In this document: positions 27,642 to 45,503 of the stretch, piece by piece
Layout of the letters: every line of letters starts with the position of its first letter
How positions within the stretch are numbered: position 1 is the first letter of the stretch
IMG/VR virus record: IMGVR_UViG_3300023313_000005
Location: 1 to 64,000 of that record
Direction: 5' to 3' (one strand)
DNA length: 64,000 nt
DNA from: a virus
Notes under the pieces: model-generated
Databases searched by the model: none
What the model was told of the DNA's origin: nothing
What the model saw: the letters and a program-made list of their open reading frames with translations, nothing else
Made by a program: the position numbers and the translations under genes

Positions 27642-27669
27642 ATATTATATTAATTTATAATTATAAAAA

Positions 27670-28125: not shown

Positions 28126-28127
28126 TT

Positions 28128-28880: not shown

Positions 28881-28881
28881 T

Positions 28882-30391: not shown

Positions 30392-31059
30392 TTGTTATTA
30401 TTTATTGTTTTAATAATTCCAGAATTGTTGTGTAAATCATAATTATCACTAAAATCAAACCATGAAGTGTGATACACTTTAACTTTATTAATTATATCAA
30501 TAAACGGTTTACCTTTTATTAAAAATTTGTCATTTGATAAACATTCACTATTGTCTATGTTTTTAATAAAATTATCTACTGTACTATTGTTATAAAAAAT
30601 ACCAATTCTTAATAATAATAAATACATACTTAATAAATGAGGCTCAGATCCCCATTGTTTATCAAACCTTACTTTTATACATTTATTATGTAGTGATAAA
30701 TCTGTTTCATTTATTAATGTTTGTAATGTAATTATAGATTTTGGTATTTCAAAATTACGTTCAATATAATGAATAAAATGTTTTAAATTATTTACATTAT
30801 TTTTATTTAATTCAAAATCATCATGATGAAGTATTAATGTATATTTATTTCGTTTTTTTAATAAAGAAGAGTTACATTTAAATCCGTAAATTGATATATC
30901 ACGACCTGTAATTTGAGACCAAAATATATCTTGAAAATAATCTTTACAGTACGTTAAAGGTGTAATATTTATATTATTTTCAATTAAAGAAAATTGTATA
31001 CCTGATGTTACTGCTTCCTCTAATTTATGCTGTAAGTTGTTCTGAATAATTGTGATCAT
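30388..31059 (-). CDS. Hypothetical protein in the amidoligase cluster
   Basis: 223-aa ORF with CKDYFQD and H.NSGI motifs; 4-nt overlap with the ligase. Confidence 0.6.
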   Translation of the reverse strand: MITIIQNNLQHKLEEAVTSGIQFSLIENNINITPLTYCKDYFQDIFWSQITGRDISIYGFKCNSSLLKKRNKYTLILHHDDFELNKNNVNNLKHFIHYIERNFEIPKSIITLQTLINETDLSLHNKCIKVRFDKQWGSEPHLLSMYLLLLRIGIFYNNSTVDNFIKNIDNSECLSNDKFLIKGKPFIDIINKVKVYHTSWFDFSDNYDLHNNSGIIKTINNNK

Positions 31060-31639
31060 AACAATATTTTTTTAATAAATCTTTTACTAATTTACATGAA
31101 GGGTGAGAGGTCTCTTCATATTCAGGATGAAATTGTACCGCTAATGCATTTAAATCTTTATAATAAATAATTTCATATTCAATTACATTAGAAGTTATAT
31201 TAGTAGCTATTTTATTTTTACAAAATGCTAATGGTAAATATGAATTAATATTTGTAGGATTCATCATTTGATGATGATAACTATTAACTTTAATTACTTT
31301 ATTATTACAAATAATTTCATGATCTTTACAATTATGATTATTTACATCTTGAATTAATGATCCACCAGATACAACAGTTAGTAATTGAGCACCTCTACAT
31401 ATTCCTAATATTGGAATATTATGTAATTTAGCCATTTCAATTACTTTTATTTCTTTATAATCACGATTTTTATCTGGGATATCATTTTTTAAATCTTCAT
31501 ATTGATCATATAATTTAGCGTTTATATCAGTACCTCCTCCTAATATTACTAAATTAGCATCTTTTACAGTGTATACTTCTTTGTAATTACTTAACCATTC
31601 ATGTGATTCATTAGGTGATGTCATATAAATTTTAAGCAT
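31025..31639 (-). CDS. Class I glutamine amidotransferase / peptidase C26 (PuuD-like gamma-glutamyl hydrolase)
   Basis: GGGTDI, RD..E, GICRGAQ, NS.HHQ, QFHPE catalytic triad. Confidence 0.9.
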   Translation of the reverse strand: MLKIYMTSPNESHEWLSNYKEVYTVKDANLVILGGGTDINAKLYDQYEDLKNDIPDKNRDYKEIKVIEMAKLHNIPILGICRGAQLLTVVSGGSLIQDVNNHNCKDHEIICNNKVIKVNSYHHQMMNPTNINSYLPLAFCKNKIATNITSNVIEYEIIYYKDLNALAVQFHPEYEETSHPSCKLVKDLLKKYCYDHNYSEQLTA

Positions 31640-32198
31640 TTTTTAATAATTTTTTATTACGGTTATAAACATATGTTAAATCTGACATTAAATTGGTAAA
31701 TGATAACTCATCAATATACCAATCATCGCCTTCTTCATCAATTTCTAATTCGTGATCATTCATAATTACTCTTATATCAGAATAAAATTGATCATCATCT
31801 AATTGATAATATTCATCATTACTATTTTCACATGATGATATATAAGTAGATGACTTAATTACTATTTTGTATGTTGTACAACAATACCATAAATAATAAT
31901 TTAATTTATACAATACTCGTAATAAACTCTTATAAAACATATAATATGTCATATTAGGGAAATAATTACGTGTTAATGCATATAATGATGTTACTGATCT
32001 AGATGCATTAGTACTACAATTTATATAACCTGGAGTAATTATATTTGCTGTAGCAGGTGATCCTTTTTTTATATAATTTAATAAAAAAGAATATGGTGTC
32101 TTATATAAAAAATAAGGTGTTTCAGTATCTTTATTATAAATTTTCATCATAGGACACATATCTAACGCTCTTTTTGAATTAAAATTGTAATTTTTCAT
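31632..32198 (-). CDS. Hypothetical protein
   Basis: 188-aa ORF overlapping both neighbours. Confidence 0.6.
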   Translation of the reverse strand: MKNYNFNSKRALDMCPMMKIYNKDTETPYFLYKTPYSFLLNYIKKGSPATANIITPGYINCSTNASRSVTSLYALTRNYFPNMTYYMFYKSLLRVLYKLNYYLWYCCTTYKIVIKSSTYISSCENSNDEYYQLDDDQFYSDIRVIMNDHELEIDEEGDDWYIDELSFTNLMSDLTYVYNRNKKLLKNA

Positions 32199-32734: not shown

Positions 32735-34540
32735 TTAAAATAAAGTTAATTGTTTATTTTCAATTACGTTTATAATTTTATAACATTCTCTAATATAATA
32801 ATTCATATTTATATTTTTTAAATAATTAATATTACTATCATAGTCATTTAATATTGTAACATTAAAACCTGATTCAATAGCTTCTATACGTCCATCTTCG
32901 TGGTGTTTATACAATGAATTATTACTATTGGATATAATATATCTATTTGTTTTTTGTAATCGTTTATACCCCTTTAAAGTGTGTAATATAGTAGCCCATC
33001 CTTTAGTAGCTGTAAAACTTTTACAAAAATCAAATATGTTACATTCATTTAATGATTGTTCTATTGGAATAGATTTTAAAAAATAATTACTAATTGCGAT
33101 TCTTACTGCTTTCATAGAATGATTTTTATGCCAATCTCTTTCTATTTCAAAAGCACCTTTATATTTTATTTTGTTATCAATTGTACAAGCTATATAATTA
33201 TTTACATCACGTATTATCATTTGTTTATAATTAACATATTCTAATTCTAAATTAGTTAATTTTTCCCATGATTTACATATTTGTATACATTTATTATATT
33301 CAGATTTTGGTAATAATATTGTTAATCCATCTGTATTAATTTGTAACATTGTTACATCATATAATAAATCTACTATTTTTTCAGAAAGCATTGTTAATAA
33401 TAACTGACCATTAATAGTAATGTTCATTGTAAATAATGGGTCATATAAAAAACTATATTCACTATTAGATTTACCAAAAGATCCATTTAACGCAATTTTA
33501 ATTACATAATTCTGAGGAGTACCTTTTTTAAATGTTTTTCTTATTTCATATTGTTGTTTATATATTTTACAAAATGCTAAACCTAAATGTTTAGGATAAA
33601 AATTATTACTAATAGCTAAGTTAGGATAATATGATTTTACATCAATATCTAAAATCATATGAGTATTAGAATTAGAGTATCTTCCGGGTGAAATACAACC
33701 ATGAATTCCTCCTGTACCAAATTCATATTTAAAATTTTTATATATTACATTTAAATTTTTAAATACTCCTTTTGTTTCGGTAATAATTTTATTTTTAAGA
33801 ATTGATAGAAAATTGTTAAATTCTTTACTTGAATATTTAACATAAGGTAATATACAATCTTTTAATTTAATTTCTTTTCTATATGTACGTAATTGATTAA
33901 TTGTTGATATACTAGTATTTAATTCTTCAGATAATAGTTTTTTAAAAATACTTTCACCTATACCTGCATCAGGTTTATTTAATACATTTATATTATATAT
34001 TTTGCTAATTTCTTTTCTTAACTCAATTACAGGTAACGATTTTAAATAAAATTCATATGTTGAATCTACATCATTTATGCAATATTTTATTATATCAGGT
34101 ATTTGGTGTTTTTCTATAATAGCATCGGGCGATAATGGTAAATCTTGAACTTTTTTCCAACGTAATGCTATTTGTATTTTTTTCAAACTAGTACGTTTGG
34201 CTTTATTATCAAAATGCCAAATTTTATATAAATCTATTTGAGGAATAATTACTTCTGATTCATATATTGATGAATATTTACTATTTATTATTTCTTTACT
34301 TTTATTATATAATCCTTTTATATTTCTTGTTTTTATTAAATAATGTAATAAAGGATAATCATAATTAATATTATTAAATCCTATTAATTGAATATCAGAT
34401 AATAAAAATTTTATATATTCATCAAAGTCATTTTTACTGTCATGTAATATAAATATTTTAGTTTCTTTAGTTTTTATATTAAAGAATATACCACAGTGGA
34501 AATTTTTAAATTGTTCTAAATCATATATATAAGTATCCAT
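32735..34540 (-). CDS. polB: Family B DNA polymerase (crAss type)
   Basis: ExoI YDLE, ExoII GFNNINYD, YCINDV, motif A DVKSYYP, motif B KIALNGSFGK, motif C NTDG. Confidence 0.9.
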   Translation of the reverse strand: MDTYIYDLEQFKNFHCGIFFNIKTKETKIFILHDSKNDFDEYIKFLLSDIQLIGFNNINYDYPLLHYLIKTRNIKGLYNKSKEIINSKYSSIYESEVIIPQIDLYKIWHFDNKAKRTSLKKIQIALRWKKVQDLPLSPDAIIEKHQIPDIIKYCINDVDSTYEFYLKSLPVIELRKEISKIYNINVLNKPDAGIGESIFKKLLSEELNTSISTINQLRTYRKEIKLKDCILPYVKYSSKEFNNFLSILKNKIITETKGVFKNLNVIYKNFKYEFGTGGIHGCISPGRYSNSNTHMILDIDVKSYYPNLAISNNFYPKHLGLAFCKIYKQQYEIRKTFKKGTPQNYVIKIALNGSFGKSNSEYSFLYDPLFTMNITINGQLLLTMLSEKIVDLLYDVTMLQINTDGLTILLPKSEYNKCIQICKSWEKLTNLELEYVNYKQMIIRDVNNYIACTIDNKIKYKGAFEIERDWHKNHSMKAVRIAISNYFLKSIPIEQSLNECNIFDFCKSFTATKGWATILHTLKGYKRLQKTNRYIISNSNNSLYKHHEDGRIEAIESGFNVTILNDYDSNINYLKNINMNYYIRECYKIINVIENKQLTLF

Positions 34541-34550
34541 GTTTAAAATA

Positions 34551-34574
34551 AGAAAGGGGAATTACCCCCTTTCT
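34551..34574 (-). terminator. Terminator-like hairpin upstream of polB
   Basis: AGAAAGGGG/CCCCTTTCT stem. Confidence 0.55.
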
Positions 34575-34629
34575 GTTTAAGTTAAATTAATAATTCATAC
34601 ACATTAAAATTAAAGAACATGTACGTTCT

Positions 34630-34917
34630 TTAATCTTTTCTTTTTTTTATTTTAATATTATGAATACGTGAACATACTCTTAAAAATGAAACATCGTCAT
34701 CCTCAATCCAATATTTTATTAATAGTCTAGATTGTTTACTACTAATATGAAAAATATTACTTAATTTTAATATTAATATATAATCATCTAATTTAGAATT
34801 ATTATCTATGTAATTCCAAATTTCATCAGGATAAAATCGTATTTCTGAATAATGATTATAGTAATAAATTAAATATAGTATTGCTATTAATAAAAAAGTT
34901 ATAATTATTCCAATCAT
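34630..34917 (-). CDS. Small membrane-anchored protein (start likely MIGIII)
   Basis: Hydrophobic N-terminal segment IGIIITFLLIAILYLIYYY. Confidence 0.5.
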   Translation of the reverse strand: MIGIIITFLLIAILYLIYYYNHYSEIRFYPDEIWNYIDNNSKLDDYILILKLSNIFHISSKQSRLLIKYWIEDDDVSFLRVCSRIHNIKIKKRKD

Positions 34918-34991
34918 TAATTTATTGTTTTTTATGTTTAATAAATTACATTTAAATAAAATTTTAATTTTGTATCTATCATAATATATTT

Positions 34992-35228
34992 TTATAATGA
35001 ATTGAGTTCTTTCCATTTTCCCATAGACATAGACCCTTTATAACTATATTTTAATCCGTATCCACTTCCCCAATTAGTACCTTTTCCACTTCCCTCTCCA
35101 GACCCATTCCCTATTCCGCCTGTTGAACAACATCCACTACCATCCATATATCTATGTGTATAAAGATATTCTATATTATTCATATCTATAAGTATATTGT
35201 CTAATCTATCTATTGTAAAATCTATCAT
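34992..35228 (-). CDS. Array A peptide 18 (78 aa)
   Basis: MIDFTID...GxG repeats. Confidence 0.7.
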   Translation of the reverse strand: MIDFTIDRLDNILIDMNNIEYLYTHRYMDGSGCCSTGGIGNGSGEGSGKGTNWGSGYGLKYSYKGSMSMGKWKELNSL

Positions 35229-35236
35229 ATTATTTT

Positions 35237-35494
35237 TTAATAAATTGAACTATCTAAAATTAAAAATTCATTCCCAGTTCCAAGATCATGTCCCGTCCTT
35301 TCACTTTCACCATAATCTGCTATGTATAAATTTTCATGCTGAGTATTTACTAAACTACAATCTATCCATCCTCCGTATTTATTTCCTCCACCTGTTCCGT
35401 GTCCCATAGAATTAATTTTTGGTGCGGTAGAACTTAAAAATAATACCCCTCTAGGATAACATTCCCCATAATCATTAATATTATAATCTATCAT
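35237..35494 (-). CDS. Array A peptide 17 (85 aa)
   Basis: MIDYNINDYG...GNEFLIL. Confidence 0.7.
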   Translation of the reverse strand: MIDYNINDYGECYPRGVLFLSSTAPKINSMGHGTGGGNKYGGWIDCSLVNTQHENLYIADYGESERTGHDLGTGNEFLILDSSIY

Positions 35495-35745
35495 AATATA
35501 CTAATTTCTTCTCCTTTTCCGATATCATAATGATAAATATATTTATCATTATATGTACTTTCATATCCACATCCATATTTAGTTTCGTACGTGCATTGTA
35601 TATATCCTAACCCACACCCATTTCCATTTTTCTCTCCATACTCAGATGAATTTCCACTTCCGTGCCCATTTCCATATCTATAACCTTGTCCATTTCCTCT
35701 TCCCCCATGTCCCGTTCCTTTATTATTAAGTCTTGTATCTATCAT
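35491..35745 (-). CDS. Array A peptide 16 (84 aa)
   Basis: MIDTRLNNKG...EISIL. Confidence 0.75.
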   Translation of the reverse strand: MIDTRLNNKGTGHGGRGNGQGYRYGNGHGSGNSSEYGEKNGNGCGLGYIQCTYETKYGCGYESTYNDKYIYHYDIGKGEEISIL

Positions 35746-35939
35746 AATATATTTATATATTCATGTCCACATCCTTTTTCATCTATATATCCTATTCCAT
35801 ATCCACTTCCATATCCATCTTTTATTCCCTTTCCTAATCTATCTCCACCATCATCTCCCACTCCTTGTCCATATCCATACCCATTGGCATTCCCGAATTC
35901 ATACCAATTTCCATTATTATTAATATTATAATCTACCAT
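35742..35939 (-). CDS. Array A peptide 15 (65 aa)
   Basis: MVDYNINNNG...YINIL. Confidence 0.75.
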   Translation of the reverse strand: MVDYNINNNGNWYEFGNANGYGYGQGVGDDGGDRLGKGIKDGYGSGYGIGYIDEKGCGHEYINIL

Positions 35940-36238
35940 AATATATTGTTTATATATTCACATCCATCTCCATATCCACTTTCATGATTGTTTCCATATC
36001 CATTTCCGCACCCTTTTCTACAGCTATATCCATATCCATTTCCAAGTCCATCTCCATCTCCACATCCGTATCCTTTTCCATATCCTTTCCCATTTCCATA
36101 TCCATTTCCATTTCCATCTCCATCTCCAAGTCCATCTCCATCTCCATCTCCAAACCAATGCCTATATTTATTTCTATTACTATTTCCACATACTATTCTA
36201 TATCCTTTTTCATTAATATCAAGTGTTGCGTCAATCAT
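35933..36238 (-). CDS. Array A peptide 14 (101 aa)
   Basis: MIDATLDIN...INNILW. Confidence 0.75.
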   Translation of the reverse strand: MIDATLDINEKGYRIVCGNSNRNKYRHWFGDGDGDGLGDGDGNGNGYGNGKGYGKGYGCGDGDGLGNGYGYSCRKGCGNGYGNNHESGYGDGCEYINNILW

Positions 36239-36474
36239 AATATATCAATTTCATTTCCATTTCCGTTAATATATTTATTTATATAGTCATATACATAACC
36301 ATATCCGTATCCATATCCATTTTCATTATTATCATTATTTTCTTCTCCGTATCCTTCTCCGTAATCATCCCCATAACCGTCTCCATGTCCACCTCCATAT
36401 CCATGTCCTTTTTTATATCCAACATCATCAGAGAATATATAACATCCCCTATTATTATATTCTATATCTATCAT
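36235..36474 (-). CDS. Array A peptide 13 (79 aa)
   Basis: MIDIEYNNRG...EIDIL. Confidence 0.75.
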   Translation of the reverse strand: MIDIEYNNRGCYIFSDDVGYKKGHGYGGGHGDGYGDDYGEGYGEENNDNNENGYGYGYGYVYDYINKYINGNGNEIDIL

Positions 36475-36477
36475 AAT

Positions 36478-36711
36478 TTATAAAACAAAAGGTTCTTTCC
36501 ATTTCCCACGGTTATATCTATTCAATCCTATATTTTCACCATCTCCGACTCCTTGTCCATTACCTTTTCCACATTTATCTCCCCATCCACTACCTTCTCC
36601 ACGTCCATTACCTTGACCATATTTATTACCTACTCTTATATCATAATGCATTCCATTATCAATTAAATGTGATTTTTTATATCCATTATCATTATATTTT
36701 GTATCTATCAT
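36478..36711 (-). CDS. Array A peptide 12 (77 aa)
   Basis: MIDTKYNDNG...PFVL. Confidence 0.75.
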   Translation of the reverse strand: MIDTKYNDNGYKKSHLIDNGMHYDIRVGNKYGQGNGRGEGSGWGDKCGKGNGQGVGDGENIGLNRYNRGKWKEPFVL

Positions 36712-36848
36712 AATATATCATTTTCATACCCGTCCCCATACCCGGTTTCATTGTCATGTCCATCTTCACCACCATCTCCATGCCCATATTCATTTCCAAA
36801 CCCATTTTCATATTCTATTCTATTATTAGTAAATGCTGTATCTATCAT
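36708..36848 (-). CDS. Array A peptide 11 (46 aa, not in ORF track)
   Basis: Hand translation: MIDTAFTNNRIEYENGFGNEYGHGDGGEDGHDNETGYGDGYENDIL. Confidence 0.75.
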   Translation of the reverse strand: MIDTAFTNNRIEYENGFGNEYGHGDGGEDGHDNETGYGDGYENDIL

Positions 36849-37078
36849 AATGCGTTATTTTCATATCTTATTCCATAATTATTATATTTATAATTATATT
36901 CCTCTCCTCCACCATGTTTATTTCCATATCCATTCGCATGTCCTTTTCCATACCCATTTCCGTCTTCAAATCCATATCCACTTCCTTCTCTATATCCCCC
37001 TCCTTCTCCATTTCTATATCCTATTTCATGTCCTATTTTATGTCCTGTTCCAATATTATTAAAATTTACATCTATCAT
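36845..37078 (-). CDS. Array A peptide 10 (77 aa; start corrected from 37126)
   Basis: MIDVNFNNIG...ENNAL. Confidence 0.75.
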   Translation of the reverse strand: MIDVNFNNIGTGHKIGHEIGYRNGEGGGYREGSGYGFEDGNGYGKGHANGYGNKHGGGEEYNYKYNNYGIRYENNAL

Positions 37079-37338
37079 GATATAGTATTTACATATCCGT
37101 AACCATTTCCATCTCCATATCCGCATCCATCTATATATCCGTATCCATTTGCATATCCATATCCGTATCCTTTCCCATTTTCATATCCGTCCCCACATCC
37201 ATATCCATTAATATCCCCATCCCCATTTCCATATCCATATCCATATCCATATCCATGTTTACTCTCACATCCGTGTCCTTTTCCGTATCCGTATCCTATT
37301 CCACTATCATTATTATTATTAAATTTTACATCTATCAT
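37075..37338 (-). CDS. Array A peptide 9 (87 aa)
   Basis: MIDVKFNNNN...VNTIS. Confidence 0.75.
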   Translation of the reverse strand: MIDVKFNNNNDSGIGYGYGKGHGCESKHGYGYGYGYGNGDGDINGYGCGDGYENGKGYGYGYANGYGYIDGCGYGDGNGYGYVNTIS

Positions 37339-37514
37339 AATACATCGTTTATATCCTCATTTCTATCGTTTCCGTATCCATCTCCACATCCATTCCCGTA
37401 TCCATCCCCATATCCATATCCATATCCACTTCCATTTCTATCTCCTTGCCCATATTCGTATCCTCTTCCATATCCATATTCTATTCCGATATTACTAAAA
37501 TTTGTATCTATCAT
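37335..37514 (-). CDS. Array A peptide 8 (59 aa, not in ORF track)
   Basis: Hand translation: MIDTNFSNIGIEYGYGRGYEYGQGDRNGSGYGYGYGDGYGNGCGDGYGNDRNEDINDVL. Confidence 0.75.
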   Translation of the reverse strand: MIDTNFSNIGIEYGYGRGYEYGQGDRNGSGYGYGYGDGYGNGCGDGYGNDRNEDINDVL

Positions 37515-37729
37515 AATATACGAATTTCTATTCCTATTCCATTTCTATTTTCATGATTATATTCTTCTCCAAACATAAATCTTTTTCCAAATCCTTTTTT
37601 GAGTTCACTATCATACCATTTTGTATTTTCACTCCATTTTCCAAGTCTAGTACTATATCCTGTTCCAGATTCCTCCCCTAATCTTTCTAAATAACTAAAT
37701 CCCTTATTGTTAAAAGTTCTATCTATCAT
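37511..37729 (-). CDS. Array A peptide 7 (72 aa)
   Basis: MIDRTFNNKG...EIRIL. Confidence 0.75.
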   Translation of the reverse strand: MIDRTFNNKGFSYLERLGEESGTGYSTRLGKWSENTKWYDSELKKGFGKRFMFGEEYNHENRNGIGIEIRIL

Positions 37730-37896
37730 AGTATAGTATAATTATTTCCATTCCCTTCTCCATATTCATTACCATGTCCTCCACCATGTCCGTGACCATA
37801 CCCATTTCCATAATTATCTCCACATGACAATCCATATTTTATTTCAAATGTTATTCCATATCCATTTCCATCAGTATTGATATTCATATCTATCAT
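37726..37896 (-). CDS. Array A peptide 6 (56 aa, not in ORF track)
   Basis: Hand translation: MIDMNINTDGNGYGITFEIKYGLSCGDNYGNGYGHGHGGGHGNEYGEGNGNNYTIL. Confidence 0.75.
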   Translation of the reverse strand: MIDMNINTDGNGYGITFEIKYGLSCGDNYGNGYGHGHGGGHGNEYGEGNGNNYTIL

Positions 37897-38105
37897 AATA
37901 TATCATTTATTTTTTCATAACTATGTCCATATCTATATCCATTTCCTTTACCATATCCATTCCCATTTCCACATCCATTTTTATAATCGTCCCCATTTCT
38001 ACTTCCGGATCCATATCCATATCCTCTTCCGTCTCCATAGCCATTTCCAAATCCAGATCCGTATCCATATCCAACACCATTAATATTAAGTTTTGTATTT
38101 ATCAT
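37893..38105 (-). CDS. Array A peptide 5 (70 aa)
   Basis: MINTKLNING...INDIL. Confidence 0.75.
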   Translation of the reverse strand: MINTKLNINGVGYGYGSGFGNGYGDGRGYGYGSGSRNGDDYKNGCGNGNGYGKGNGYRYGHSYEKINDIL

Positions 38106-38118
38106 AGTACATAAATTT

Positions 38119-38397
38119 TTATTCTATATATATATCATCTCCTATACCATATCCATCTCCCGCACCATTCTTATATCCTTTCCCATTTCCATATATATTT
38201 CCTTTTCCATTTCCACATCCATTCCCGTCTCCACATCCATTTTTATCTCCATATCCACATCCATTTCCAAACCCATTCCCGTACCCTATTCCATTTTCAG
38301 ACTCGCTTCCATATCCATATCCTAATTTACTTCCATACCCATACCCTTCTCCATATTCGTATTCTATTCCGGTATTGTTAAAATATGTATCTATCAT
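38119..38397 (-). CDS. Array A peptide 4 (92 aa)
   Basis: MIDTYFNNTGIEY... Confidence 0.75.
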   Translation of the reverse strand: MIDTYFNNTGIEYEYGEGYGYGSKLGYGYGSESENGIGYGNGFGNGCGYGDKNGCGDGNGCGNGKGNIYGNGKGYKNGAGDGYGIGDDIYIE

Positions 38398-38594
38398 AAT
38401 ATATTATTTTTATCTCCATATCCATAACCATGTCCATTTCCATTTCCATTTCCATATTTCTTTCCGTATTCATATGTATTTCCATACCCATATGCATTTC
38501 CTTTTCCATAATTATATCCAGTATTAGAACTATATCCATCTCCAAATCCATTTCTATATTCTATTCCAGTATTATTAAAACTTGTGTCTATCAT
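38394..38594 (-). CDS. Array A peptide 3 (66 aa)
   Basis: MIDTSFNNTGIEY...KNNIL. Confidence 0.75.
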   Translation of the reverse strand: MIDTSFNNTGIEYRNGFGDGYSSNTGYNYGKGNAYGYGNTYEYGKKYGNGNGNGHGYGYGDKNNIL

Positions 38595-38818
38595 AGTATA
38601 TCATTTATACATCCATATCCACTTCCATCCTCATATCCATTTCCATCCCCACATCCTTCTCCGTATCCATTTCCGTTTCCGTATTCATTGCCATATCCAT
38701 TTCCATCCCCATTTTCATTTCCACATCCATTTCCGTACCCATATCCGTATCCTATTCCATTTTCATATCCATATTCATCTTCACCATATCCATTAATATT
38801 AAGTTTTGTATCTATCAT
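38591..38818 (-). CDS. Array A peptide 2 (75 aa)
   Basis: MIDTKLNING...INDIL. Confidence 0.75.
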   Translation of the reverse strand: MIDTKLNINGYGEDEYGYENGIGYGYGYGNGCGNENGDGNGYGNEYGNGNGYGEGCGDGNGYEDGSGYGCINDIL

Positions 38819-39012
38819 AATATATTTTCATTTCCGCGTCCATACCCATATCCGTATCCATCTCCATTTCCTTGTCCATGTCCATGTCCATATCCCCCAT
38901 ATCCATTTCCGTGTCCCCTTCCATCTCCATTTCCATGTCTATTCCCAGATCCATATTGACTATCATAACTGATTTTATGATGTCCTGTACTATTAAAATA
39001 TATATCTATCAT
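38815..39012 (-). CDS. Array A peptide 1 (65 aa)
   Basis: MIDIYFNSTG...NENIL. Confidence 0.75.
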   Translation of the reverse strand: MIDIYFNSTGHHKISYDSQYGSGNRHGNGDGRGHGNGYGGYGHGHGQGNGDGYGYGYGRGNENIL

Positions 39013-39025
39013 AACTCATAAAATT

Positions 39026-39052
39026 AAAAGGGGAGATATTACTCTCCCCTTT
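39026..39052 (-). terminator. Terminator-like hairpin at the head of array A
   Basis: AAAGGGGAGA/TCTCCCCTTT stem followed by a T-run on the minus strand. Confidence 0.7.
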
Positions 39053-39078
39053 ATTTGACTAAAATTTAGTGCATTGAC

Positions 39079-39486
39079 TTAAAGATTAATAGCAGTCTGA
39101 GCTTCACGTTCTCGGATTTGGTCTTCCATTTTCTGAATAATAGCATCTATGCTCTCTGCAGACTTAGATGATATCTTCCAATAAGGAATAGTAGAGAATT
39201 GTTCAACTGCCTCATCAGTCATTCTAATAACTTCTATGGCAGTCATACTATTTTGAATTACAGGCATTGTAAATTCACATTCAGAGGGTTTACTAGAACC
39301 TAAAGTAGCTAATTCTGATAGAGTATGAGCTCCTGCCCAAGACCTAATTCTTCTTGTTTTTTGGAGTGTTACATACATTCCATTTTTGGTATCTTTAACA
39401 TTTACTAATTTACCAAAATGTACTCCTGCAGAGTATGTTCTTACAATTACTTGTTCGCCTAAATCTGGATGATTTGTGTTTTCCAT
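39079..39486 (-). CDS. DUF6948-like protein
   Basis: VIVRTYSAGVHFG, RRI.SW.GA.TLSELA..G, IEVI motifs (recalled family signature). Confidence 0.7.
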   Translation of the reverse strand: MENTNHPDLGEQVIVRTYSAGVHFGKLVNVKDTKNGMYVTLQKTRRIRSWAGAHTLSELATLGSSKPSECEFTMPVIQNSMTAIEVIRMTDEAVEQFSTIPYWKISSKSAESIDAIIQKMEDQIREREAQTAINL

Positions 39487-39505
39487 GGTTTTTGTTTATT
39501 AATTA

Positions 39506-39772
39506 TTAATCAATTGAGTTCATCATTTTTTTAGTTACAGGATTATATTCCTGTTGTACTATTTTTATTACACATGGGGTATCTTCACTTGTTTTTACAG
39601 TAAAGTGATGACCATGCTCCACAATAACAGCCCCATTAGGTTCCAGAACTACTGTACCCATTTTTTCAAACTTCTTAATTACTTTTACATCAGTAGATTT
39701 CTTTAAATCCACATAATGTTCTCCATTACTGTGCTCCAGAATCAATTTCTGATTTTCTTGTTCTGTATTCAT
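39506..39772 (-). CDS. Small HxxH protein, copy A
   Basis: EHGHH and QQEYNPVTK; paralog of 45504-45770. Confidence 0.75.
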   Translation of the reverse strand: MNTEQENQKLILEHSNGEHYVDLKKSTDVKVIKKFEKMGTVVLEPNGAVIVEHGHHFTVKTSEDTPCVIKIVQQEYNPVTKKMMNSID

Positions 39773-39788
39773 TTGTTTGTTTTTATGC

Positions 39789-40550
39789 TCAAGATTGAGC
39801 GGTTAATAATTCAAAATATGATTTTTTAGACATATGTATAGGATCTTCATTAGGTAAAGGTACTATTTTCTTATCCATTTCAAATAAGAATACATCTCCT
39901 TGACGTATAATACTTTTAATATGACCTTCCATAGATGGATAATACATACATAAACTAGCAACTGCTTCTAAAGGAGATCCATTTTTAAAATGTTCAGGTA
40001 CCCATAACCAATGTTCGTCATTAGTACTAGTACAATGACATCTAATTACAGGTACTATAGGATCTTCTACTGCATCAGGATCTTGTAATTTTGTAATATC
40101 CACATGCCATAGTTCATACATTACATGATAATCTATTTCCTCCATCTTATCTAATGTTTCATTATATACCCTATTGATAAGATGTTCTCCTTCAGTTTTT
40201 ATTCTTTCTGAAGGTAAATTATCCATCATCTCTCTAATAGAAATAACTCCAAATAAAGCAGCTCTATAGTTGCTATTTTTAATGCTAAATGCCTCTTGAT
40301 AGGTATATTTATCAAAAGCATCCCAATAAGCCATTAATCCCTCTATATAAGCGGCTTCTTCAAATTCCCCATAAGTACAAATATCTTCAATCATAGGATC
40401 AAAGAATCTGGATTTAGCCCGTTTAAAATTATCATTGTACTTTGTTTTTAAAAATCTTATGATTGTAGGATCTTTTAAGGTAGCATTATTCACCTGAAAA
40501 GTTTTACTCTCTGAGTAGTACGTAATACCTTCAATTGGTAATGTTTTCAT
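39789..40550 (-). CDS. DUF6745-like protein, copy A
   Basis: YEL, CHCTST..EHWLWV, A.AS, RQGDVF, YF.LLTAQS; paralog of 45736-46554. Confidence 0.7.
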   Translation of the reverse strand: MKTLPIEGITYYSESKTFQVNNATLKDPTIIRFLKTKYNDNFKRAKSRFFDPMIEDICTYGEFEEAAYIEGLMAYWDAFDKYTYQEAFSIKNSNYRAALFGVISIREMMDNLPSERIKTEGEHLINRVYNETLDKMEEIDYHVMYELWHVDITKLQDPDAVEDPIVPVIRCHCTSTNDEHWLWVPEHFKNGSPLEAVASLCMYYPSMEGHIKSIIRQGDVFLFEMDKKIVPLPNEDPIHMSKKSYFELLTAQS

Positions 40551-40583
40551 AATTAATTAATCTGTTTGTGTTTATATCTGTAT

Positions 40584-40826
40584 TTATTTTTGTAAAATAC
40601 CAAAAGAATCTCCGTTTCCTTTTGAAGTTGATAAATTTAATATTATTCCAGTTCCTACATCAGATTCATATTCAAGTCTATGTATATTTCCTTTTCCATT
40701 TCCTTTACCATCACCAATTCCTATCCCATCACCATCACCATATCCAGTTCCTTGGTTATATCCTAAACTATCTATTAATGAATCTAAACCTCCACGTCCA
40801 GTTTTTTTAAATTTATAATCTATCAT
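40584..40826 (-). CDS. Outlying MID-family Gly-rich peptide (80 aa)
   Basis: MIDYKFKKTG...GDGDGIGIGDG...FGILQK. Confidence 0.7.
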   Translation of the reverse strand: MIDYKFKKTGRGGLDSLIDSLGYNQGTGYGDGDGIGIGDGKGNGKGNIHRLEYESDVGTGIILNLSTSKGNGDSFGILQK

Positions 40827-41016
40827 TATTAAATGTAATAACTATTTTTTCTATTCCATATCCAGGTCTAGATATTTGTTCTTTGCATTCGTTATTTAAA
40901 TCATGTGTAACTGAAGCTTCAATTATAATATTTCTGATAATTTTATGTTGACTCACATAATAAGAAACTTCAGAATCTACAAAACTTCCGAAATTAGTAA
41001 AGTTTATATCTATCAT
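40813..41016 (-). CDS. Outlying MID-family peptide (67 aa; start corrected from 41058)
   Basis: MIDINFTNFG...; junction ATATTATGATAGATA identical to array A. Confidence 0.6.
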   Translation of the reverse strand: MIDINFTNFGSFVDSEVSYYVSQHKIIRNIIIEASVTHDLNNECKEQISRPGYGIEKIVITFNNDRL

Positions 41017-41026
41017 AATATACATA

Positions 41027-41164
41027 TTATTTTTGAGTACGTAATCTTTCCACCTCATTCTCCATTACCTGAAGTAACTTCTGAAGTTGGTTGTACGTTG
41101 GTAGGTCGTTGTAAGATAGTGATAATTCCACACCATCTCTTTCAAAGGTTATCTTGTTTTTCAT
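41027..41164 (-). CDS. Hypothetical protein (45 aa, not in ORF track)
   Basis: Hand translation: MKNKITFERDGVELSLSYNDLPTYNQLQKLLQVMENEVERLRTQK. Confidence 0.45.
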   Translation of the reverse strand: MKNKITFERDGVELSLSYNDLPTYNQLQKLLQVMENEVERLRTQK

Positions 41165-41200
41165 TCTATAACTCTTTTGTCATTACATCTAAGTTTGAGA

Positions 41201-41458
41201 CTACACAAGCTCAAAATACCTCTCAAATTCCCAAACAACCCAATCTCTTTTACTTCTTGATAGCTTTGATTTTTTCTGTTGGATTAATTCGTATTCTTTC
41301 ACAATATCAACCGATAACATTTGTTTTGACCTTTTATCATAAAAGTCAGTAAAACCAAAAGCGGCACTCATAGTTAATATAGTTGTCATTGTTTTACTTA
41401 TCGGTTTCCTTTTTGGGAGTTCTCTTTCCCTGTATTTCAATCCGTTTATTTCTATCAT
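41201..41458 (-). CDS. Hypothetical protein
   Basis: 85 aa; EYELIQQKKSKLSRSKRD motif; ATGA-coupled. Confidence 0.65.
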   Translation of the reverse strand: MIEINGLKYRERELPKRKPISKTMTTILTMSAAFGFTDFYDKRSKQMLSVDIVKEYELIQQKKSKLSRSKRDWVVWEFERYFELV

Positions 41459-41655
41459 TTCACAACTCTTTTAATATTTCCTCTATTTATTAATTCTTGA
41501 CATTCTTCAAGAGTTCCTTGACAATCAATAAATTCTATATGTTTTACTCTCCATGCAAAATATCCATCTGTTTTTAAATCCCTAAATCTATTAGGAAATC
41601 TACTTACTTGGATTCCGAATTTACCATTTTCAAATTCTACTATTCTTGGTTTCAT
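41455..41655 (-). CDS. Hypothetical protein
   Basis: 66 aa; A-rich initiation region. Confidence 0.6.
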   Translation of the reverse strand: MKPRIVEFENGKFGIQVSRFPNRFRDLKTDGYFAWRVKHIEFIDCQGTLEECQELINRGNIKRVVK

Positions 41656-41665
41656 TTGTTTTGTT

Positions 41666-41842
41666 TTAATATTTTAAATCTTCTGTAATTATATCTATAA
41701 CTACCATTAATAATACTATAAATAATACTACCCGAATCCGAAACAATGTATCTAAATCTGTTATATTTATATCATTTTTGAGGAATATTACAAGAATTAG
41801 AGAAATTCCTACTACTGATAGGTATTTGATTAGTTTTTTCAT
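41666..41842 (-). CDS. Small two-TM membrane protein, tandem paralog 2 (58 aa, not in ORF track)
   Basis: MKKLIKYLSVVGISLILVIFLKNDINITDLDTLFRIRVVLFIVLLMVVIDIITEDLKY. Confidence 0.65.
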   Translation of the reverse strand: MKKLIKYLSVVGISLILVIFLKNDINITDLDTLFRIRVVLFIVLLMVVIDIITEDLKY

Positions 41843-41846
41843 CTTA

Positions 41847-42020
41847 TTAATCTATATCTTTTGTTATTACAGCTGTGAGGATTATAAATAGCGCTGTAAA
41901 TGCTATCATTGCAAATCTATCAAAAGGAGATGATTCCATTATATTAGTGTCACCTTTGATGAATATTATAAGAAGTAAGGTAAGCCCTACTACTGATAGG
42001 TATTTGATTAGCTTTCTCAT
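41847..42020 (-). CDS. Small two-TM membrane protein, tandem paralog 1 (57 aa, not in ORF track)
   Basis: MRKLIKYLSVVGLTLLLIIFIKGDTNIMESSPFDRFAMIAFTALFIILTAVITKDID. Confidence 0.65.
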   Translation of the reverse strand: MRKLIKYLSVVGLTLLLIIFIKGDTNIMESSPFDRFAMIAFTALFIILTAVITKDID

Positions 42021-42289
42021 TCCTTTTTGTCTTTAATGAATACTTTTAATGTTCTTCCCTCGTCTTGTAAACTCAACTCTACTTCGCAATGCTTGTTTTT
42101 GTTTACGTATTTTCTGCCTTTCGGGTCTATCACCTCTACTCTGGTGACTTCGCTTAATTCTACTAGCGTTCCTTTCACCACCCAATCTTCAAAGCCGTCA
42201 AACTCCGCACAGCTTCTTTCCATTTCTTCCAACTCCTCCTCTGTGACTAGACGAAGTTCGTTGTCTGATAGTTCAATTAGTATCTTCAT
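42017..42289 (-). CDS. Hypothetical protein
   Basis: 90 aa; VTRVEVID..GR.YV...SLQDEGRTLKVF. Confidence 0.7.
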   Translation of the reverse strand: MKILIELSDNELRLVTEEELEEMERSCAEFDGFEDWVVKGTLVELSEVTRVEVIDPKGRKYVNKNKHCEVELSLQDEGRTLKVFIKDKKE

Positions 42290-42436
42290 TTTGTTTTGTT
42301 TTTTAAACTAACACGTTGTATGTGGTCTGAACGTCTTGACAAGCATAATAATAAATGTCTGCAGTTCCCGTTCGTGTTGCCTCATATTAACATTGTTTAT
42401 ACGCCATGCTGCGCACGGGCGCATACACGGGTGTTA

Positions 42437-42736
42437 TCAACAAGGTGGTTTGCACCATTCTTTTACTATCATATTTTCAAAGTTGTATTTCCAGCAATTA
42501 TCATTTTCCCACCATTCATTAATTCCGTATTTACCATTTTCGTATTTAACAAACACTTGTTTGTCATCAGTAGGTAAGGCATCTTTAATCGCTACCCAAT
42601 TGCTAATATGTGGTATAGATAATTGCTCTATACAGTGGTTTATTAATTCGTGTAAAGTCCAGTAACTATCGCAGTTGTTGTCTATTTTTTCAACTGGGTT
42701 TATTCCCATTTCTTCTAATAATTTTCTTGTTGTCAT
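42437..42736 (-). CDS. DUF551-like protein
   Basis: WVAIKDALP...V..W..PP C-terminal pattern. Confidence 0.6.
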   Translation of the reverse strand: MTTRKLLEEMGINPVEKIDNNCDSYWTLHELINHCIEQLSIPHISNWVAIKDALPTDDKQVFVKYENGKYGINEWWENDNCWKYNFENMIVKEWCKPPC

Positions 42737-42748
42737 TTTGGTTTTATT

Positions 42749-42994
42749 TTAAAGTTCAACTCTTTTTTTGTAGTAAATCTCGTCCGTGATTCCATCCTCC
42801 AACTCTATCACTAAGACAATGTCCTCACCCCTTTCCTCTCTGGTCACAGAAAGCACCCCCACATCTTCACTGATTAGCCGCCCGTCCAATGTTTCCACGA
42901 TGGTGGGCATATCTATTATCTGATCTCGCTTGAAGTGCTCCTCGTGGAAGACTACTCCGTCTGTGGTTATTCGTTTGTATGGGCTTATATCCAT
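42749..42994 (-). CDS. Hypothetical protein
   Basis: 81-aa ORF in the operon. Confidence 0.55.
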   Translation of the reverse strand: MDISPYKRITTDGVVFHEEHFKRDQIIDMPTIVETLDGRLISEDVGVLSVTREERGEDIVLVIELEDGITDEIYYKKRVEL

Positions 42995-43512
42995 GATGAT
43001 TTTTCAATTAATTCCTTATGGAATTCTGCAAACTTTTTTGCTCTTTTTTTTGTTGGGAAAGCAAGGAATGATATTTTATCGCGTGTTTCTAGAATCTCAT
43101 AACTTGGCTCCCCACAAATAGGTAGTATTATAGATTTAGCTGTTTTATCGTACCATTCTAAATTCTTTTCTTCTTCCCAATTTGGACTCCAATCTCCATT
43201 ATAATCAGCTACCAATTGGGATAGCATGGCTTTGGCAATACTAGCTTCTGCTTGCTTTCTTGTTTTGAATATATTACCATCATTATCAGTTCTGCGTGGA
43301 ATACCTATTGGATAAATATTACTAAAAGCATCTATCCAATACCCTCCTACTTTTTCTAACTCTTCCCGAGTCTTTAATTTCCCTTCTTGTGGCTCTTCCT
43401 TGAGTGTCTTTAACACCCTCTCCAATTCTGGAATATCTTTTTTTGAAACTGTGATTTTGACTGTGTCGGTATTCAATTCTGTTACTTTCATGTTATTTGT
43501 TTTTGATTGCAT
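42985..43512 (-). CDS. Hypothetical protein
   Basis: 175 aa; FKT..QAEA, N.DW.PNW, F.T...A..F motifs. Confidence 0.7.
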   Translation of the reverse strand: MQSKTNNMKVTELNTDTVKITVSKKDIPELERVLKTLKEEPQEGKLKTREELEKVGGYWIDAFSNIYPIGIPRRTDNDGNIFKTRKQAEASIAKAMLSQLVADYNGDWSPNWEEEKNLEWYDKTAKSIILPICGEPSYEILETRDKISFLAFPTKKRAKKFAEFHKELIEKSSWI

Positions 43513-44080
43513 TTTCTAAATGTAAAAAGTACGCTTTATATGCTTTGTACATTGCTTCTATTCTGATAAATTCTTCTGTACCTCTTTTTGTTTCAAATTC
43601 GTCATCACCCTTAAACCATTCATCCCATTGTTCAATAGTTTTGCATTCACATCCAATTTTTATTTTATTATTCACTATACCAAAACTCCATTTTGAGTAA
43701 ATAGGCATAATTGCATTACTTATATCTGCTCTACGAAGGTTTACCCCGTCAAAGTTTACTCCACGAAGGTCTGATTCACGAAGGTCTGCTTCATCGAGGA
43801 TTGATTCACAAAGGTTTGCTCCACGAAGGTCTGCTCTGTAAAGGTTTGCTCCACGAAAATCTACTCTACGAAGGTTGGTTTCATAAAGATTTGCTCCACG
43901 AAGGTTAGCTTCATAAAAGTTGGCTTCAAAAAGGTTGGCTCCACAAAAATTTGCTTCAAAAAGATTGGCCCCATGAAAGTCTGCCCCACGGAGGTCAGCT
44001 CTACGCAAGTAGGCTCCTATTAATGTATCGCCTTCAATTTCTTTTAATACTTTTCCGTTAAAATCTTTAATTTGTATCAT
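43493..44080 (-). CDS. Pentapeptide repeat protein
   Basis: About 20 A(D/N)(L/F)xx repeats; C-terminal IKIGC....I..W domain. Confidence 0.9.
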   Translation of the reverse strand: MIQIKDFNGKVLKEIEGDTLIGAYLRRADLRGADFHGANLFEANFCGANLFEANFYEANLRGANLYETNLRRVDFRGANLYRADLRGANLCESILDEADLRESDLRGVNFDGVNLRRADISNAIMPIYSKWSFGIVNNKIKIGCECKTIEQWDEWFKGDDEFETKRGTEEFIRIEAMYKAYKAYFLHLENAIKNK

Positions 44081-44135
44081 GACTTTTTGATTACATTTTT
44101 TAATGTAATAAATATATCAACAATATTTATTTATA

Positions 44136-45447: not shown

Positions 45448-45465
45448 ATTTTGTTGTGTTGTAAT

Positions 45466-45496: not shown

Positions 45497-45503
45497 AACC
45501 CTA

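Follow-up and report, generated by a model that had tools for sequence, protein, structure and literature searches.

Several Sm/LSm/Hfq proteins carry glycine-rich tails: SmD1, SmD3 and SmB have Gly-Arg tails, LSm4 has an RGG tail, and Acinetobacter Hfq has GGFGGQ repeats with an acidic tip. The [G/S]Y[G/S] domains of the FUS/EWS/TAF15 type and the Tyr-Gly domain of PEX13 are condensate or gel formers. Among many-precursor RiPP loci, the prochlorosins comprise many precursors served by one enzyme. The C. elegans nlp/cnc genes are clusters encoding GYG-rich antimicrobial peptides. In phages, the VIPR vrRNAs contain tandem GGY/NN pentamer repeats and a conserved tail, are bound by a partner protein, and fall into seven types (bioRxiv 10.64898/2026.04.26.720920).

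Array A consists of 18 minus-strand ORFs of 46-101 aa, which fill positions 34992-39012 of the window (the whole 64-kb stretch of viral DNA that was analysed). Its closest counterpart is a phage gene pair, a single-copy DUF6948 (PF22253) gene with a (Gly-Ser/Tyr/Asp)n gene, for which no descriptive paper was found; the best GenBank label for the Gly-X gene is 'fibroin heavy chain-like protein' (Ralstonia phage NK-7). Array members and single-copy proteins alike are small, with period-2 Gly and a Tyr/Asp-rich X position, and both are encoded by hexamer microsatellites immediately downstream of DUF6948, on the same strand and in an early/replication region. However, array A has 18-20 copies instead of 1, a 66-nt hairpin spacer instead of a 13-nt overlap, and an X of Tyr/Asn/Asp with little Ser and more Lys/Glu/His/Cys; it also has its own MIDxxFNNxG head and ..IL tail, uses GGA rather than GGC, and includes members without the repeat. 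Array A very probably represents an extreme amplification of this widespread gene, normally present in one copy beside an Sm-like protein.

As in Sm/LSm/Hfq, the phage module combines a small Sm-fold protein with a disordered tract of the glycine-dipeptide type, and in two rare natural fusions (P0177 and P0148) the Gly-rich tail likewise lies at the C-terminus, in frame after DUF6948; unlike those tails, the phage tract is usually a separate polypeptide, is acidic/aromatic rather than basic, and is here multiplied 18-20 fold. The FUS-type and PEX13 domains resemble the array A proteins in their Tyr residues, which are separated by Gly with Ser/Asn/Asp, in their predicted disorder and in the absence of a hydrophobic core, whereas array A encodes much shorter, free-standing phage proteins with strict period-2 Gly. 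Prochlorosins and nlp/cnc peptides also form tandem small-gene families whose ends are conserved and whose Gly/Tyr-rich middles vary, but array A is found in a cytoplasmic phage context without a long leader, signal peptide or adjacent maturation enzyme. VIPR loci resemble array A as phage tandem units with a GG-punctuated variable repeat and a conserved end, located beside a small protein of the nucleic-acid-binding type; they differ in having pentamers in RNA rather than hexamers in codons and a RAMP rather than an Sm-like partner, and the units of array A are under coding selection. Homology among low-complexity proteins such as those of array A cannot be proved.

Organization of array A

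The features of the locus are as follows (-, minus strand).

38815..39012 (-): member 1, 65 aa, MIDIYFNSTG..NIL
38591..38818 (-): member 2, 75 aa, ATGA-coupled
38394..38594 (-): member 3, 66 aa, ATGA-coupled
38119..38397 (-): member 4, 92 aa, ATGA-coupled, end IE rather than IL
37893..38105 (-): member 5, 70 aa, MIN head, preceded by a 13-nt spacer
37726..37896 (-): member 6, 56 aa, ATGA-coupled
37511..37729 (-): member 7, 72 aa, Gly-X mostly gone (G 14%), frame still open
37335..37514 (-): member 8, 59 aa, ATGA-coupled
37075..37338 (-): member 9, 87 aa, ATGA-coupled
36845..37078 (-): member 10, 77 aa when read from an internal ATG, which yields a MID head; longest ORF start 37126
36708..36848 (-): member 11, 46 aa, ATGA-coupled
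36478..36711 (-): member 12, 77 aa, basic, pI 9.1
36235..36474 (-): member 13, 79 aa
35933..36238 (-): member 14, 101 aa, longest member, ATG ATT GAC head
35742..35939 (-): member 15, 65 aa, MVD head
35491..35745 (-): member 16, 84 aa, ATGA-coupled
35237..35494 (-): member 17, 85 aa, repeat mostly gone
34992..35228 (-): member 18, 78 aa, divergent head MIDFTIDRLD
40584..40826 (-): outlying member with Gly-X core, 80 aa, MIDYKFKKTG, upstream of the hub gene
40813..41016 (-): outlying member without Gly-X core, 67 aa from an internal ATG, MIDINFTNFG head
39079..39486 (-): DUF6948 gene, 135 aa, Pfam PF22253 E 3.8e-19
39027..39052 (-): G+C-rich hairpin AAAGGGG..CCCCTTT plus T-run, 15 nt ahead of member 1
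34551..34574 (-): second hairpin copy, closing the unit of array and 128-aa ORF, 11 nt ahead of the gene for DNA polymerase
34630..35016 (-): 128-aa ORF containing one hydrophobic segment, final gene in the hairpin-bounded unit, 25-nt overlap with member 18
39789..40550 (-): hub protein, 253 aa, adjoining DUF6948 in five lineages
39506..39772 (-): hub partner, 88 aa

The count of 18 takes member 10 from its internal ATG at 37078, not from the longest start. Sixteen members start with MID, one with MVD and one with MIN; [IVA]L-stop endings are found in 13 of the 18 and ATGA overlaps at 13 of the 17 junctions. An earlier note on this DNA had given the same number, lengths, starts, endings and overlaps, all of which were recovered on recounting. 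Glycine accounts for 26% of the residues, Asn and Tyr for 12% each and Asp for 7%. Successive Gly residues are 2 codons apart in 231 cases, 4 in 46 and 6 in 18, as against 1 in 16 and 3 in only 2, an even spacing far beyond chance that bears out the period-2 cores noted earlier. The cores are hexamer microsatellites in DNA (TRF period 6/12/18), and the repeat is largely lost in four members. Two further family members with the same head are located upstream (40584-40826 and 40813-41016), and a profile of array A found almost no matches beyond its own contig.

In an independent unitig assembly of the only public run with this DNA, probably from the source sample, array A is tiled with 0 mismatches at 27-38x, with flanks alike; no single contig in that assembly spans the array. 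One unitig connects 37445 to 38173, skipping 727 nt, and may be a deletion variant. Array A is directly downstream of the DUF6948 gene, from which it is separated by a terminator-like hairpin in the 66-nt spacer; this G+C-rich hairpin has only three copies in the 64 kb. No family was found for the 128-aa ORF. The structure model of the hub protein is confident, and neither a known fold nor a functional lead was found for it.

Coding capacity and the head/tail junction

At the level of sequence, the units of array A are demonstrably protein-coding and old. TAR stops number 0 against 163 TAY codons, whereas the other NAR:NAY codons stand at 146:293 (Fisher p = 3e-24). The chance of an ORF being stop-free after position-wise shuffling is P <= 0.04 for each ORF and <= 0.002 for most, and the other two frames contain 2-17 stops each. 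ORF length modulo 6 is 0 in 10 members and 3 in 8; such steps of 3 rather than 6 indicate that the codon, rather than the hexamer, sets the constraint. For Y, N, D, H, C, K and E, codon usage matches that in the phage's long genes. Gly codons are GGA in 77% of cases, compared with 52% in reference genes of the same phage, and across the wider Gly-X family GGC reaches 64-81%, whatever the GC content; these biases hint at some extra nucleotide-level constraint. GGY makes up 83-91% of Gly codons in the family, again at any GC content. The heads are 14-31% diverged in DNA, with neighbours no more alike than distant copies, and start, frame and stop are kept in 18/18 copies in DNA of 25-33% GC, in which a random frame soon meets a stop. 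This combination of old divergence and intact frames in low-GC DNA implies purifying selection on each copy. The absence of an SD motif at array A is normal, since the phage has such motifs at 0 of 27 genes.

Are the head and tail protein features? The earlier note had argued for protein-level selection on them, which is not upheld: third codon positions of the head are conserved as well as first and second positions, and the IL-stop tail and MID head are contiguous parts of a single DNA block that spans -6..+9 at the stop/start overlap (TATATT-ATG-ATA-GAT). As a single conserved DNA junction, this block does not demonstrate a protein feature and can equally be a translation-coupling signal. 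The synonymous head codons cited in favour of the claim are real, with one ATT and two GAC, yet their number is too small for the weight given to them.

DUF6948 and its Gly-X partner in other phages

The AF2 model of the DUF6948 protein (pLDDT 93.8) is an Sm/LSm-like barrel with an unusual C-terminal helix. Its approximately 36 top structural matches are all Sm/LSm proteins, the best with Z 7.9 and rmsd 1.9 over 68 residues; a Z below 8 shows a shared fold only, leaving RNA binding and ring formation as candidate properties. The conserved loops RTYSAGV and RRIWxWxGA differ from the Sm1/Sm2 motifs.

A Gly-X ORF is directly downstream of DUF6948 in 51 of 61 other viral loci. The pair is present in six of the eight GenBank phage records checked (Ralstonia NK-7, Pectobacterium Koroua, Chlorobiaceae CV-1-33, Vibrio IKEMa6-1, Iodobacter PhiPLPE and a Podoviridae genome), and the other two have a short Gly-X segment inside a longer protein. 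The earlier statement that DUF6948 often accompanies a single GYGDG-rich ORF is thus confirmed, and the association is strong. SD-like motifs are present in the four of the six records for which the sequence upstream was read. An overlap of exactly 13 nt between the Gly-X start and the DUF6948 end, which includes the invariant Trp codon, is found in 51 of 63 pairs. The X residue is S in 36-39%, Y in 25-29% and D in 22-24% in all GC bins (genome GC 0.3-0.65), while TAT:TAC shifts from 69:13 to 15:262 across these bins; Ala GCN codons number 18 against 171 expected, and Ser AGY codons 41 against 3.5 expected. Gene order and these codon patterns show that DUF6948 and the Gly-X ORF form a strongly conserved pair, with selection acting on amino acids. 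Copy number is usually 1, with 5-6 in a few loci and 18-21 in one other contig, the only equal of array A, so that the 18-fold expansion is as exceptional as first suggested.

Origin and possible role of the array

The best explanation, with a probability of about 0.6, is that array A, with its 18 members plus 2 nearby, arose by lineage-specific tandem amplification of a phage (Gly-X)n gene that is normally single and coupled to DUF6948. Judged from reading frames and gene order, array A very probably consists of real genes that are amplified members of the DUF6948/Gly-X module.

That the repeats are guide-like non-coding RNAs resembling VIPR is already largely refuted and can be given hardly any weight. 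Phage arrays of G-G-pyrimidine-punctuated repeats beside small proteins do act as guide RNAs (bioRxiv 10.64898/2026.04.26.720920), and array A offers units of a conserved junction with a variable GGN-punctuated repeat, a GGY preference in the family and a neighbour with an RNA-chaperone-like fold; however, its period is 6, whereas all seven VIPR types are pentamers, in-frame stops are excluded, unit lengths step by 3, and X identity is kept through synonymous change and both Ser codon families, with Ala avoided. Conserved ATG starts, the SD motifs in proteobacterial phages, the lack of any Rfam match or ribozyme, and the lack of a RAMP-like fold among the neighbours also oppose it. It is improbable, although less so, that array A is a functionless, slippage-prone microsatellite gene duplicated by unequal recombination at the junction and tolerated, perhaps with low-level translation behind a terminator. 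The hexamer cores, the hairpin ahead of the array and the possible deletion variant fit such an origin, and the conserved 15-nt junction block suits unequal crossing-over, but the retention of every start, frame and stop despite diverged heads, with no adjacency effect, and the independent array of 18-21 copies in another phage are against it.

A somewhat stronger, still unlikely, alternative assigns array A to the hub and 88-aa pair instead of DUF6948, as a diversified library of small repeat proteins, e.g., binders or immunity-like proteins directed against host defence proteins. Both hub paralogs in the window precede an array (array B lies at 44136-45507), families of at least 4 small ORFs occur at 8 of 79 hub loci compared with 1 of 80 DUF6948 loci, the latter also with a hub, and the two largest Gly-X arrays (in the window and, with 21 copies, in L014) are both in hub-carrying phages. 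In this phage clade DUF6948 is, in addition, firmly linked to the hub/88-aa pair, and three hub loci have MORN-like arrays of 10-24 members (L017, L029 and L037); array A may therefore owe equally to the hub context. Nevertheless, Gly-X ORFs track DUF6948, being present in 5 of 6 hub loci with it and 0 of 73 without it; at one locus (L104), 6 Gly-X copies occur without a hub within 7 kb, no similarity was detected between the MORN-like arrays and array A or B, and the hub fold gives no functional lead. Much less probable is a set of RiPP-like precursors with MIDxxFNNxG as leader, a hypervariable core and a C-terminal recognition end, for which the candidate processor would be an amidoligase/ATP-grasp-type cluster (amidoligase, GATase, COOH-NH2 ligase and GGACT; 24390-32198, same strand, ~2.3 kb downstream of the array's last gene). 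A conserved head, variable core and many tandem copies agree with this proposal, whereas the head, of only ~10 residues, shares its DNA-level conservation with the stop before it, no leader-like region or modifying enzyme was found in support, and the cores lack a conserved Cys/Ser/Thr pattern. Moreover, a hairpin and the DNA polymerase gene stand between array A and the cluster, and single-copy Gly-X genes in >50 other phages adjoin DUF6948, not such enzymes.

Under the amplification of the DUF6948-coupled gene, the products would be small, intrinsically disordered proteins, mostly acidic and rich in Tyr/Asn, that the phage makes early in infection; their translation would depend on stop/start coupling, the host making no use of Shine-Dalgarno sequences. 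More tentatively, and by analogy, they might be trans-acting low-complexity partners of the Sm-like protein, serving as 'tails' or clients of its ring. Such tails could gate the binding surface of the ring or drive a Tyr-Gly-mediated condensate or gel with RNA, in a manner comparable to Sm proteins with their Gly-Arg tails, to Hfq with its Gly-rich and acidic C-terminal domains, and to FUS-like Gly-Tyr domains. Beta-solenoid, amyloid and decoy roles, also put forward in the earlier note, are likewise hypothetical. A higher dosage and a pool of net charges from -12 to +3 would result from amplification. The head and tail would most simply be a coupling junction kept by selection, while the slippage-prone hexamer cores would diverge quickly. 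In the ESM Atlas, look-alikes of 52-86 aa make up 30 viral clusters, at 0.94-0.95. The phage carrying array A comes from a microbial mat.

Organization and assembly of array A

The window comes from a linear IMG/VR virus record of 75.5 kb with an estimated completeness of 76%. Its sequence is rich in A+T, and its genes include those for a P22-like portal, a DNA polymerase and a chaperonin. Array A and the genes adjoining it are arranged as follows.

34992-39012, minus strand: array A, 18 consecutive ORFs of 46-101 aa
39079-39486, minus strand: DUF6948 (PF22253) gene
39506-39772, minus strand: 88-aa partner of the hub
39789-40550, minus strand: hub, a 253-aa protein
40584-40826: outlying member with an array A head, upstream of the neighbouring genes
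40813-41016: outlying member with an array A head, upstream of the neighbouring genes

The layout described in the earlier note was re-observed in full: 18 ORFs with M(I/V)(D/N) heads (MID in 16, MVD in one and MIN in one), [IVA]L-stop at the end of 13, and ATGA overlaps at 13 of the 17 junctions. The products contain 26% Gly, 12% Asn, 12% Tyr and 7% Asp, and the spacing between Gly residues is even in about 300 of about 330 intervals, indicative of a Gly period of two. The intervening residue X is Tyr, Asn or Asp, with Ser at only 4%, versus 36-39% among 60 canonical members of the Gly-X family. Net charge ranges from -12 to +3, the repeat has been lost in four members, and the cores are not alignable.

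Only one public run was found to contain the array DNA, a microbial-mat metagenome that probably represents the source sample, and no RNA run is listed as containing it. Unitigs assembled independently from this metagenome cover all of array A with 0 mismatches at 27-38x, a depth similar to that of the flanks; none of its contigs spans array A. One unitig (27x) joins 37445 to 38173, skipping 727 nt with 18 other letters in between, which may reflect either a population variant with a shorter array or an assembly path caused by the repeats. A metatranscriptome from the same sample (5 million letters) gave no match on the stretch. The array DNA matched no GenBank phage, and the exact junction motif gave only single chance matches in IMG/VR. 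Apart from the contig of the array itself, a profile search returned a single 85-aa GYG protein (E 1.8e-3), low complexity defeating HMMER, and the ESM Atlas returned 30 viral look-alike clusters at 0.94-0.95.

Protein-coding genes or guide RNAs?

Phage guide-RNA arrays (VIPR) built of GGY/NN repeats have been described in a 2026 preprint (bioRxiv 10.64898/2026.04.26.720920), and the possibility that array A is a set of guide RNAs therefore had to be weighed. All VIPR types are pentameric, with tandem YNNGG (bioRxiv 10.64898/2026.04.26.720920), whereas array A is made of hexamers (TRF periods 6/12/18). Ten units have a length of 0 mod 6 and eight a length of 3 mod 6, and the constraint is therefore the codon. 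Of 449 GG occurrences, 352 are in phase with codon position 1, and the in-frame codons include 163 TAY and no TAR, against 293:146 for other NAY:NAR (Fisher p = 3e-24). Shuffles confined to codon positions left each unit stop-free with a probability of at most 0.04, mostly at most 0.002, and each of the other two frames contains 2-17 stops. Y, N, D, H, C, K and E are encoded with the same codon preferences as in the long genes of the phage. The lack of a Shine-Dalgarno (SD) motif before the units is normal here, since none of 27 genes of this phage has one. Rfam matched only a tRNA in 34000-47800. As to a neighbour of the RAMP fold, the partner in VIPR, two neighbours were modelled: the hub model has no clear PDB match, and the DUF6948 model matches Sm rather than RRM/RAMP. 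The heads differ by 14-31% at the DNA level, and neighbouring copies are no more alike than distant ones, so the array is old; that all copies of an old array are intact argues for purifying selection on each of them. The units of array A are protein-coding, with a protected frame.

Selection on the termini was gauged by codon-position conservation in codons 2-11 of the heads. Conservation at third positions (1.14 bits) was on a par with that at first (1.19 bits) and second (1.06 bits) positions. The most strongly conserved block, TATATT-ATG-ATA-GAT at -6..+9, takes in the IL-stop of a gene together with the MID of its successor, so that the "fixed head and tail" amount to a single DNA junction. 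The protein-level selection that the earlier note had read from synonymous head codons is not borne out by these values, and a stop/start coupling signal in an SD-less host fits the junction equally well as a protein motif. Other arrays conserve their junctions likewise, including non-coding spacers.

The DUF6948 and Gly-X pair across phages

The pairing of DUF6948 with a single GYGDG-rich ORF, which the earlier note had raised, holds widely. Among 80 DUF6948 loci fetched from at least 564 viral contigs with DUF6948, a (Gly-X)n ORF directly follows the gene in 51 of the 61 loci with enough downstream DNA. Among GenBank entries, the pair is also found in phages of Ralstonia, Pectobacterium, Chlorobiaceae, Vibrio and Iodobacter, as well as in a Podoviridae genome. 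Upstream sequence was examined for four of these GenBank phages, and all four have SD-like motifs before the Gly-X start. An overlap of exactly 13 nt between the ATG/GTG of the repeat gene and the end of DUF6948, with an invariant Trp codon shared, was seen in 51 of 63 pairs. The first gene of array A also lies downstream of DUF6948 on the same strand, but it is separated from it by a 66-nt spacer with a hairpin, and the DUF6948 protein of the window has an extra C-terminal helix. The 13-nt overlap is also lost in three other hub-carrying phages (L011, L014, L043). No paper was found on DUF6948, on its Gly-X pair, or on fibroin-like, GYGDG-type or Sm-like glycine-rich phage proteins. The pair is nevertheless common, in phages of Proteobacteria, of Chlorobi and of SD-less hosts, and is mis-annotated in databases: in Chlorobiaceae phage CV-1-33 (L090, 3286-3531), the call for gene_25 uses the wrong frame (MAMAMA..) and covers a GYGDG-frame gene equipped with an SD and an ATG of its own; in Iodobacter phage PhiPLPE (L097, 1161-1409), the Gly-X ORF after gp84 has no gene call; and in Ralstonia phage NK-7 the gene is annotated "fibroin heavy chain-like".

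In a set of 60 distinct partners, Ser makes up 36-39% of X, Tyr 25-29% and Asp 22-24% at any genome GC, while Tyr codons shift from a TAT:TAC ratio of 69:13 to one of 15:262 across GC bins. Ala codons are tenfold depleted (18 observed, 171 expected) and the second Ser codon family is twelvefold enriched (41 observed, 3.5 expected under independence). Residue identity thus stays constant while codons drift, which indicates amino-acid-level selection. In these 60 genes (L098-L177) Gly is encoded by GGC in 64-81%, even at GC under 0.40 with T-ending Tyr and Asp codons, whereas the SD-less phage of the window uses GGA (77%); the GGC bias could come from a need to avoid GGAGG strings, which resemble an SD, in SD-using hosts.

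Copy number is one in 41 loci and 5-6 in three (L101 and L102, which are near-identical contigs, and L104). The 18-fold expansion, suspected to be exceptional, does lie at the extreme of this distribution; it is not unique, since IMGVR_UViG_3300021142_000007 carries 18-21 Gly-X copies with a head of their own, MEIxSYGKNxD. What the window adds is the largest in-row amplification so far, a decoupling from DUF6948 and a link with the hub pair.

A DUF6948 profile search yielded 2643 clusters at 50% identity. The AlphaFold model, built from a 39-sequence alignment, has a pLDDT of 93.8 and aligns best with SmAP1 (1loj), at Z 7.9 and an rmsd of 1.9 over 68 residues, with about 36 top rows all Sm/LSm; Foldseek, whose top matches were likewise Sm/LSm, gave a probability of 1.0 at E 0.01. 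DUF6948 is thus modelled as an Sm/LSm-type five-stranded bent beta-barrel, an assignment at the fold level only, with Z under 8, and its sequence matched no solved Sm protein in the PDB. In a few members, such as the homologues P0177 and P0148, a Gly-rich tract is fused in frame to the DUF6948 C-terminus. Such Rosetta-stone fusions support the idea that the tract works with the Sm-like domain. In two human-faecal phage scaffolds (L094, L096), DUF6948 is followed by a 170-190-aa protein in which an N-terminal helix leads to just a short GYGSGYGDGYG-type segment and then to a globular domain; in a larger partner of this kind the Gly-X tract can thus serve as a linker.

The hub pair, further arrays and hairpins

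A single hub sequence used as query gave no viral-contig match, whereas a hub alignment found at least 138 relatives in viral contigs, with the invariant motifs CWCTxTxxEH and RQGDVF. The hub protein matched no GenBank phage. Its AF2 model (pLDDT 89.5) gave no match at E <= 1e-3 in a fold search (best Z 4.9), and PDB sequence searches with the hub, DUF6948 and one array member returned nothing significant. The 88-aa partner (HGxH..QQEYNP) lies beside the hub in most loci. DUF6948 adjoins the hub and this partner in five lineages, in varying order and with the canonical overlap lost. Among 79 hub loci, Gly-X ORFs were found in 5 of the 6 with DUF6948, versus 0 of the 73 without. The window has a second hub module, with a second array directly after it.

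44136-45507, minus strand: array B, ten tandem ORFs of 46-69 aa with MKLIILKDC.. heads and ..YEL tails, mostly ATGA-coupled, with no family match
45504-45770: 88-aa partner of the second hub
45736-46554: second hub copy, 36% identical to the first

Hub loci are enriched for large MORN-like arrays, none of which was found in 76 DUF6948 loci without a hub. Six hub-carrying loci (L017, L024, L029, L035, L037, L039) have tandem arrays of up to about 24 genes for 55-130-aa MORN-like proteins, with MNQYNDKG.. or MQDKKP.. heads, HGYWE motifs and ..EFYL or ..YYAR tails. Homology of the array A heads (..YNDNG) to these heads (..YNDKG) was rejected on an HMM comparison; an HMM of 63 MORN-like array proteins, run against arrays A and B with all filters off, gave a best E of 0.46.

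The 64 kb contain just three copies of a G+C-rich hairpin, AAGGGG..CCCCTT (0 expected); the distance from each copy to the gene start that follows is 11-15 nt.

34554-34571: before the DNA polymerase gene
39028-39051: before array A
47629-47649: before tRNA-Leu

With hairpins on both sides, array A and a 128-aa ORF form a bounded unit, which would be reached by read-through or cut out by processing. The three hairpins may serve in termination or in RNA processing and so divide the early region into units. A Sigma-70 promoter scan gave no more hits than the shuffle expectation.

Possible roles of the Gly-X products

Sm proteins carry Gly-Arg tails, Hfq has Gly-rich or acidic tails, and FUS-like domains are low-complexity counterparts. 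By analogy with these, we give a probability of about one in four to the reading that Gly-X products act with a putative ring of the Sm-like protein, in gating or assembly. The array products would be disordered, mostly acidic Tyr/Asn-Gly proteins that act in trans, either gating the binding surface of the ring or driving Tyr-Gly assembly with RNA, and amplification of the array would raise both dose and diversity. A bolder and distinctly less probable extension is that about 20 diversified low-complexity "tails" make up a trans-acting library for a single Sm-like ring, welded to the hub and 88-aa pair in this clade. As infection proceeds, different tails could retune which RNAs or proteins the ring targets, or the material properties of a Tyr-Gly condensate.

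Four alternatives were considered. The array could be a hub-linked repertoire of small binders. It could also supply precursor peptides to the nearby amidoligase cluster. No enzyme lies inside the hairpin-bounded unit, the cluster is about 2.3 kb off, past the polymerase gene, and the array A head is about 10 aa long and conserved as DNA. The other two are a tolerated microsatellite expansion and the guide-RNA reading weighed above.

Provided that the Sm-like protein is an RNA binder and that the repeats either form condensates or tune it, the pair would be a phage counterpart of the low-complexity tails of Sm/LSm proteins; should the tail library exist, it would be a combinatorial low-complexity-protein system without a described counterpart in bacterial viruses. 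Array A, with its 18-20 intact and old copies, is a natural experiment on the dosage and variability of a low-complexity protein of a bacterial virus, and its non-repeat members and conserved ends are possible handles for biochemistry.

Other features of the window

53-14806, plus strand: giant ORF of at least 4917 aa, open at the window start
24390-32198, minus strand: two class-II GATases, Amidoligase_2, GGACT cyclotransferase, phiEco32-like COOH-NH2 ligase, Peptidase_C26/class-I GATase and unknown ORFs, between the helicase region and the DNA polymerase
43493-44080, minus strand: pentapeptide-repeat protein of 195 aa (Pfam E 4e-33), in the early region between the two hub modules
57857-61072, plus strand: 1071-aa protein with Hom_end/LAGLIDADG homing-endonuclease domains at residues ~382-447

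The giant ORF contains an SF1 helicase/AAA_30 region near residues 370-610 and a PD-(D/E)XK nuclease domain near 3855-4020. At 57857-61072 the endonuclease domains probably represent an insertion of intein type in a large phage gene, which immediately precedes that of the portal (61136-63637).
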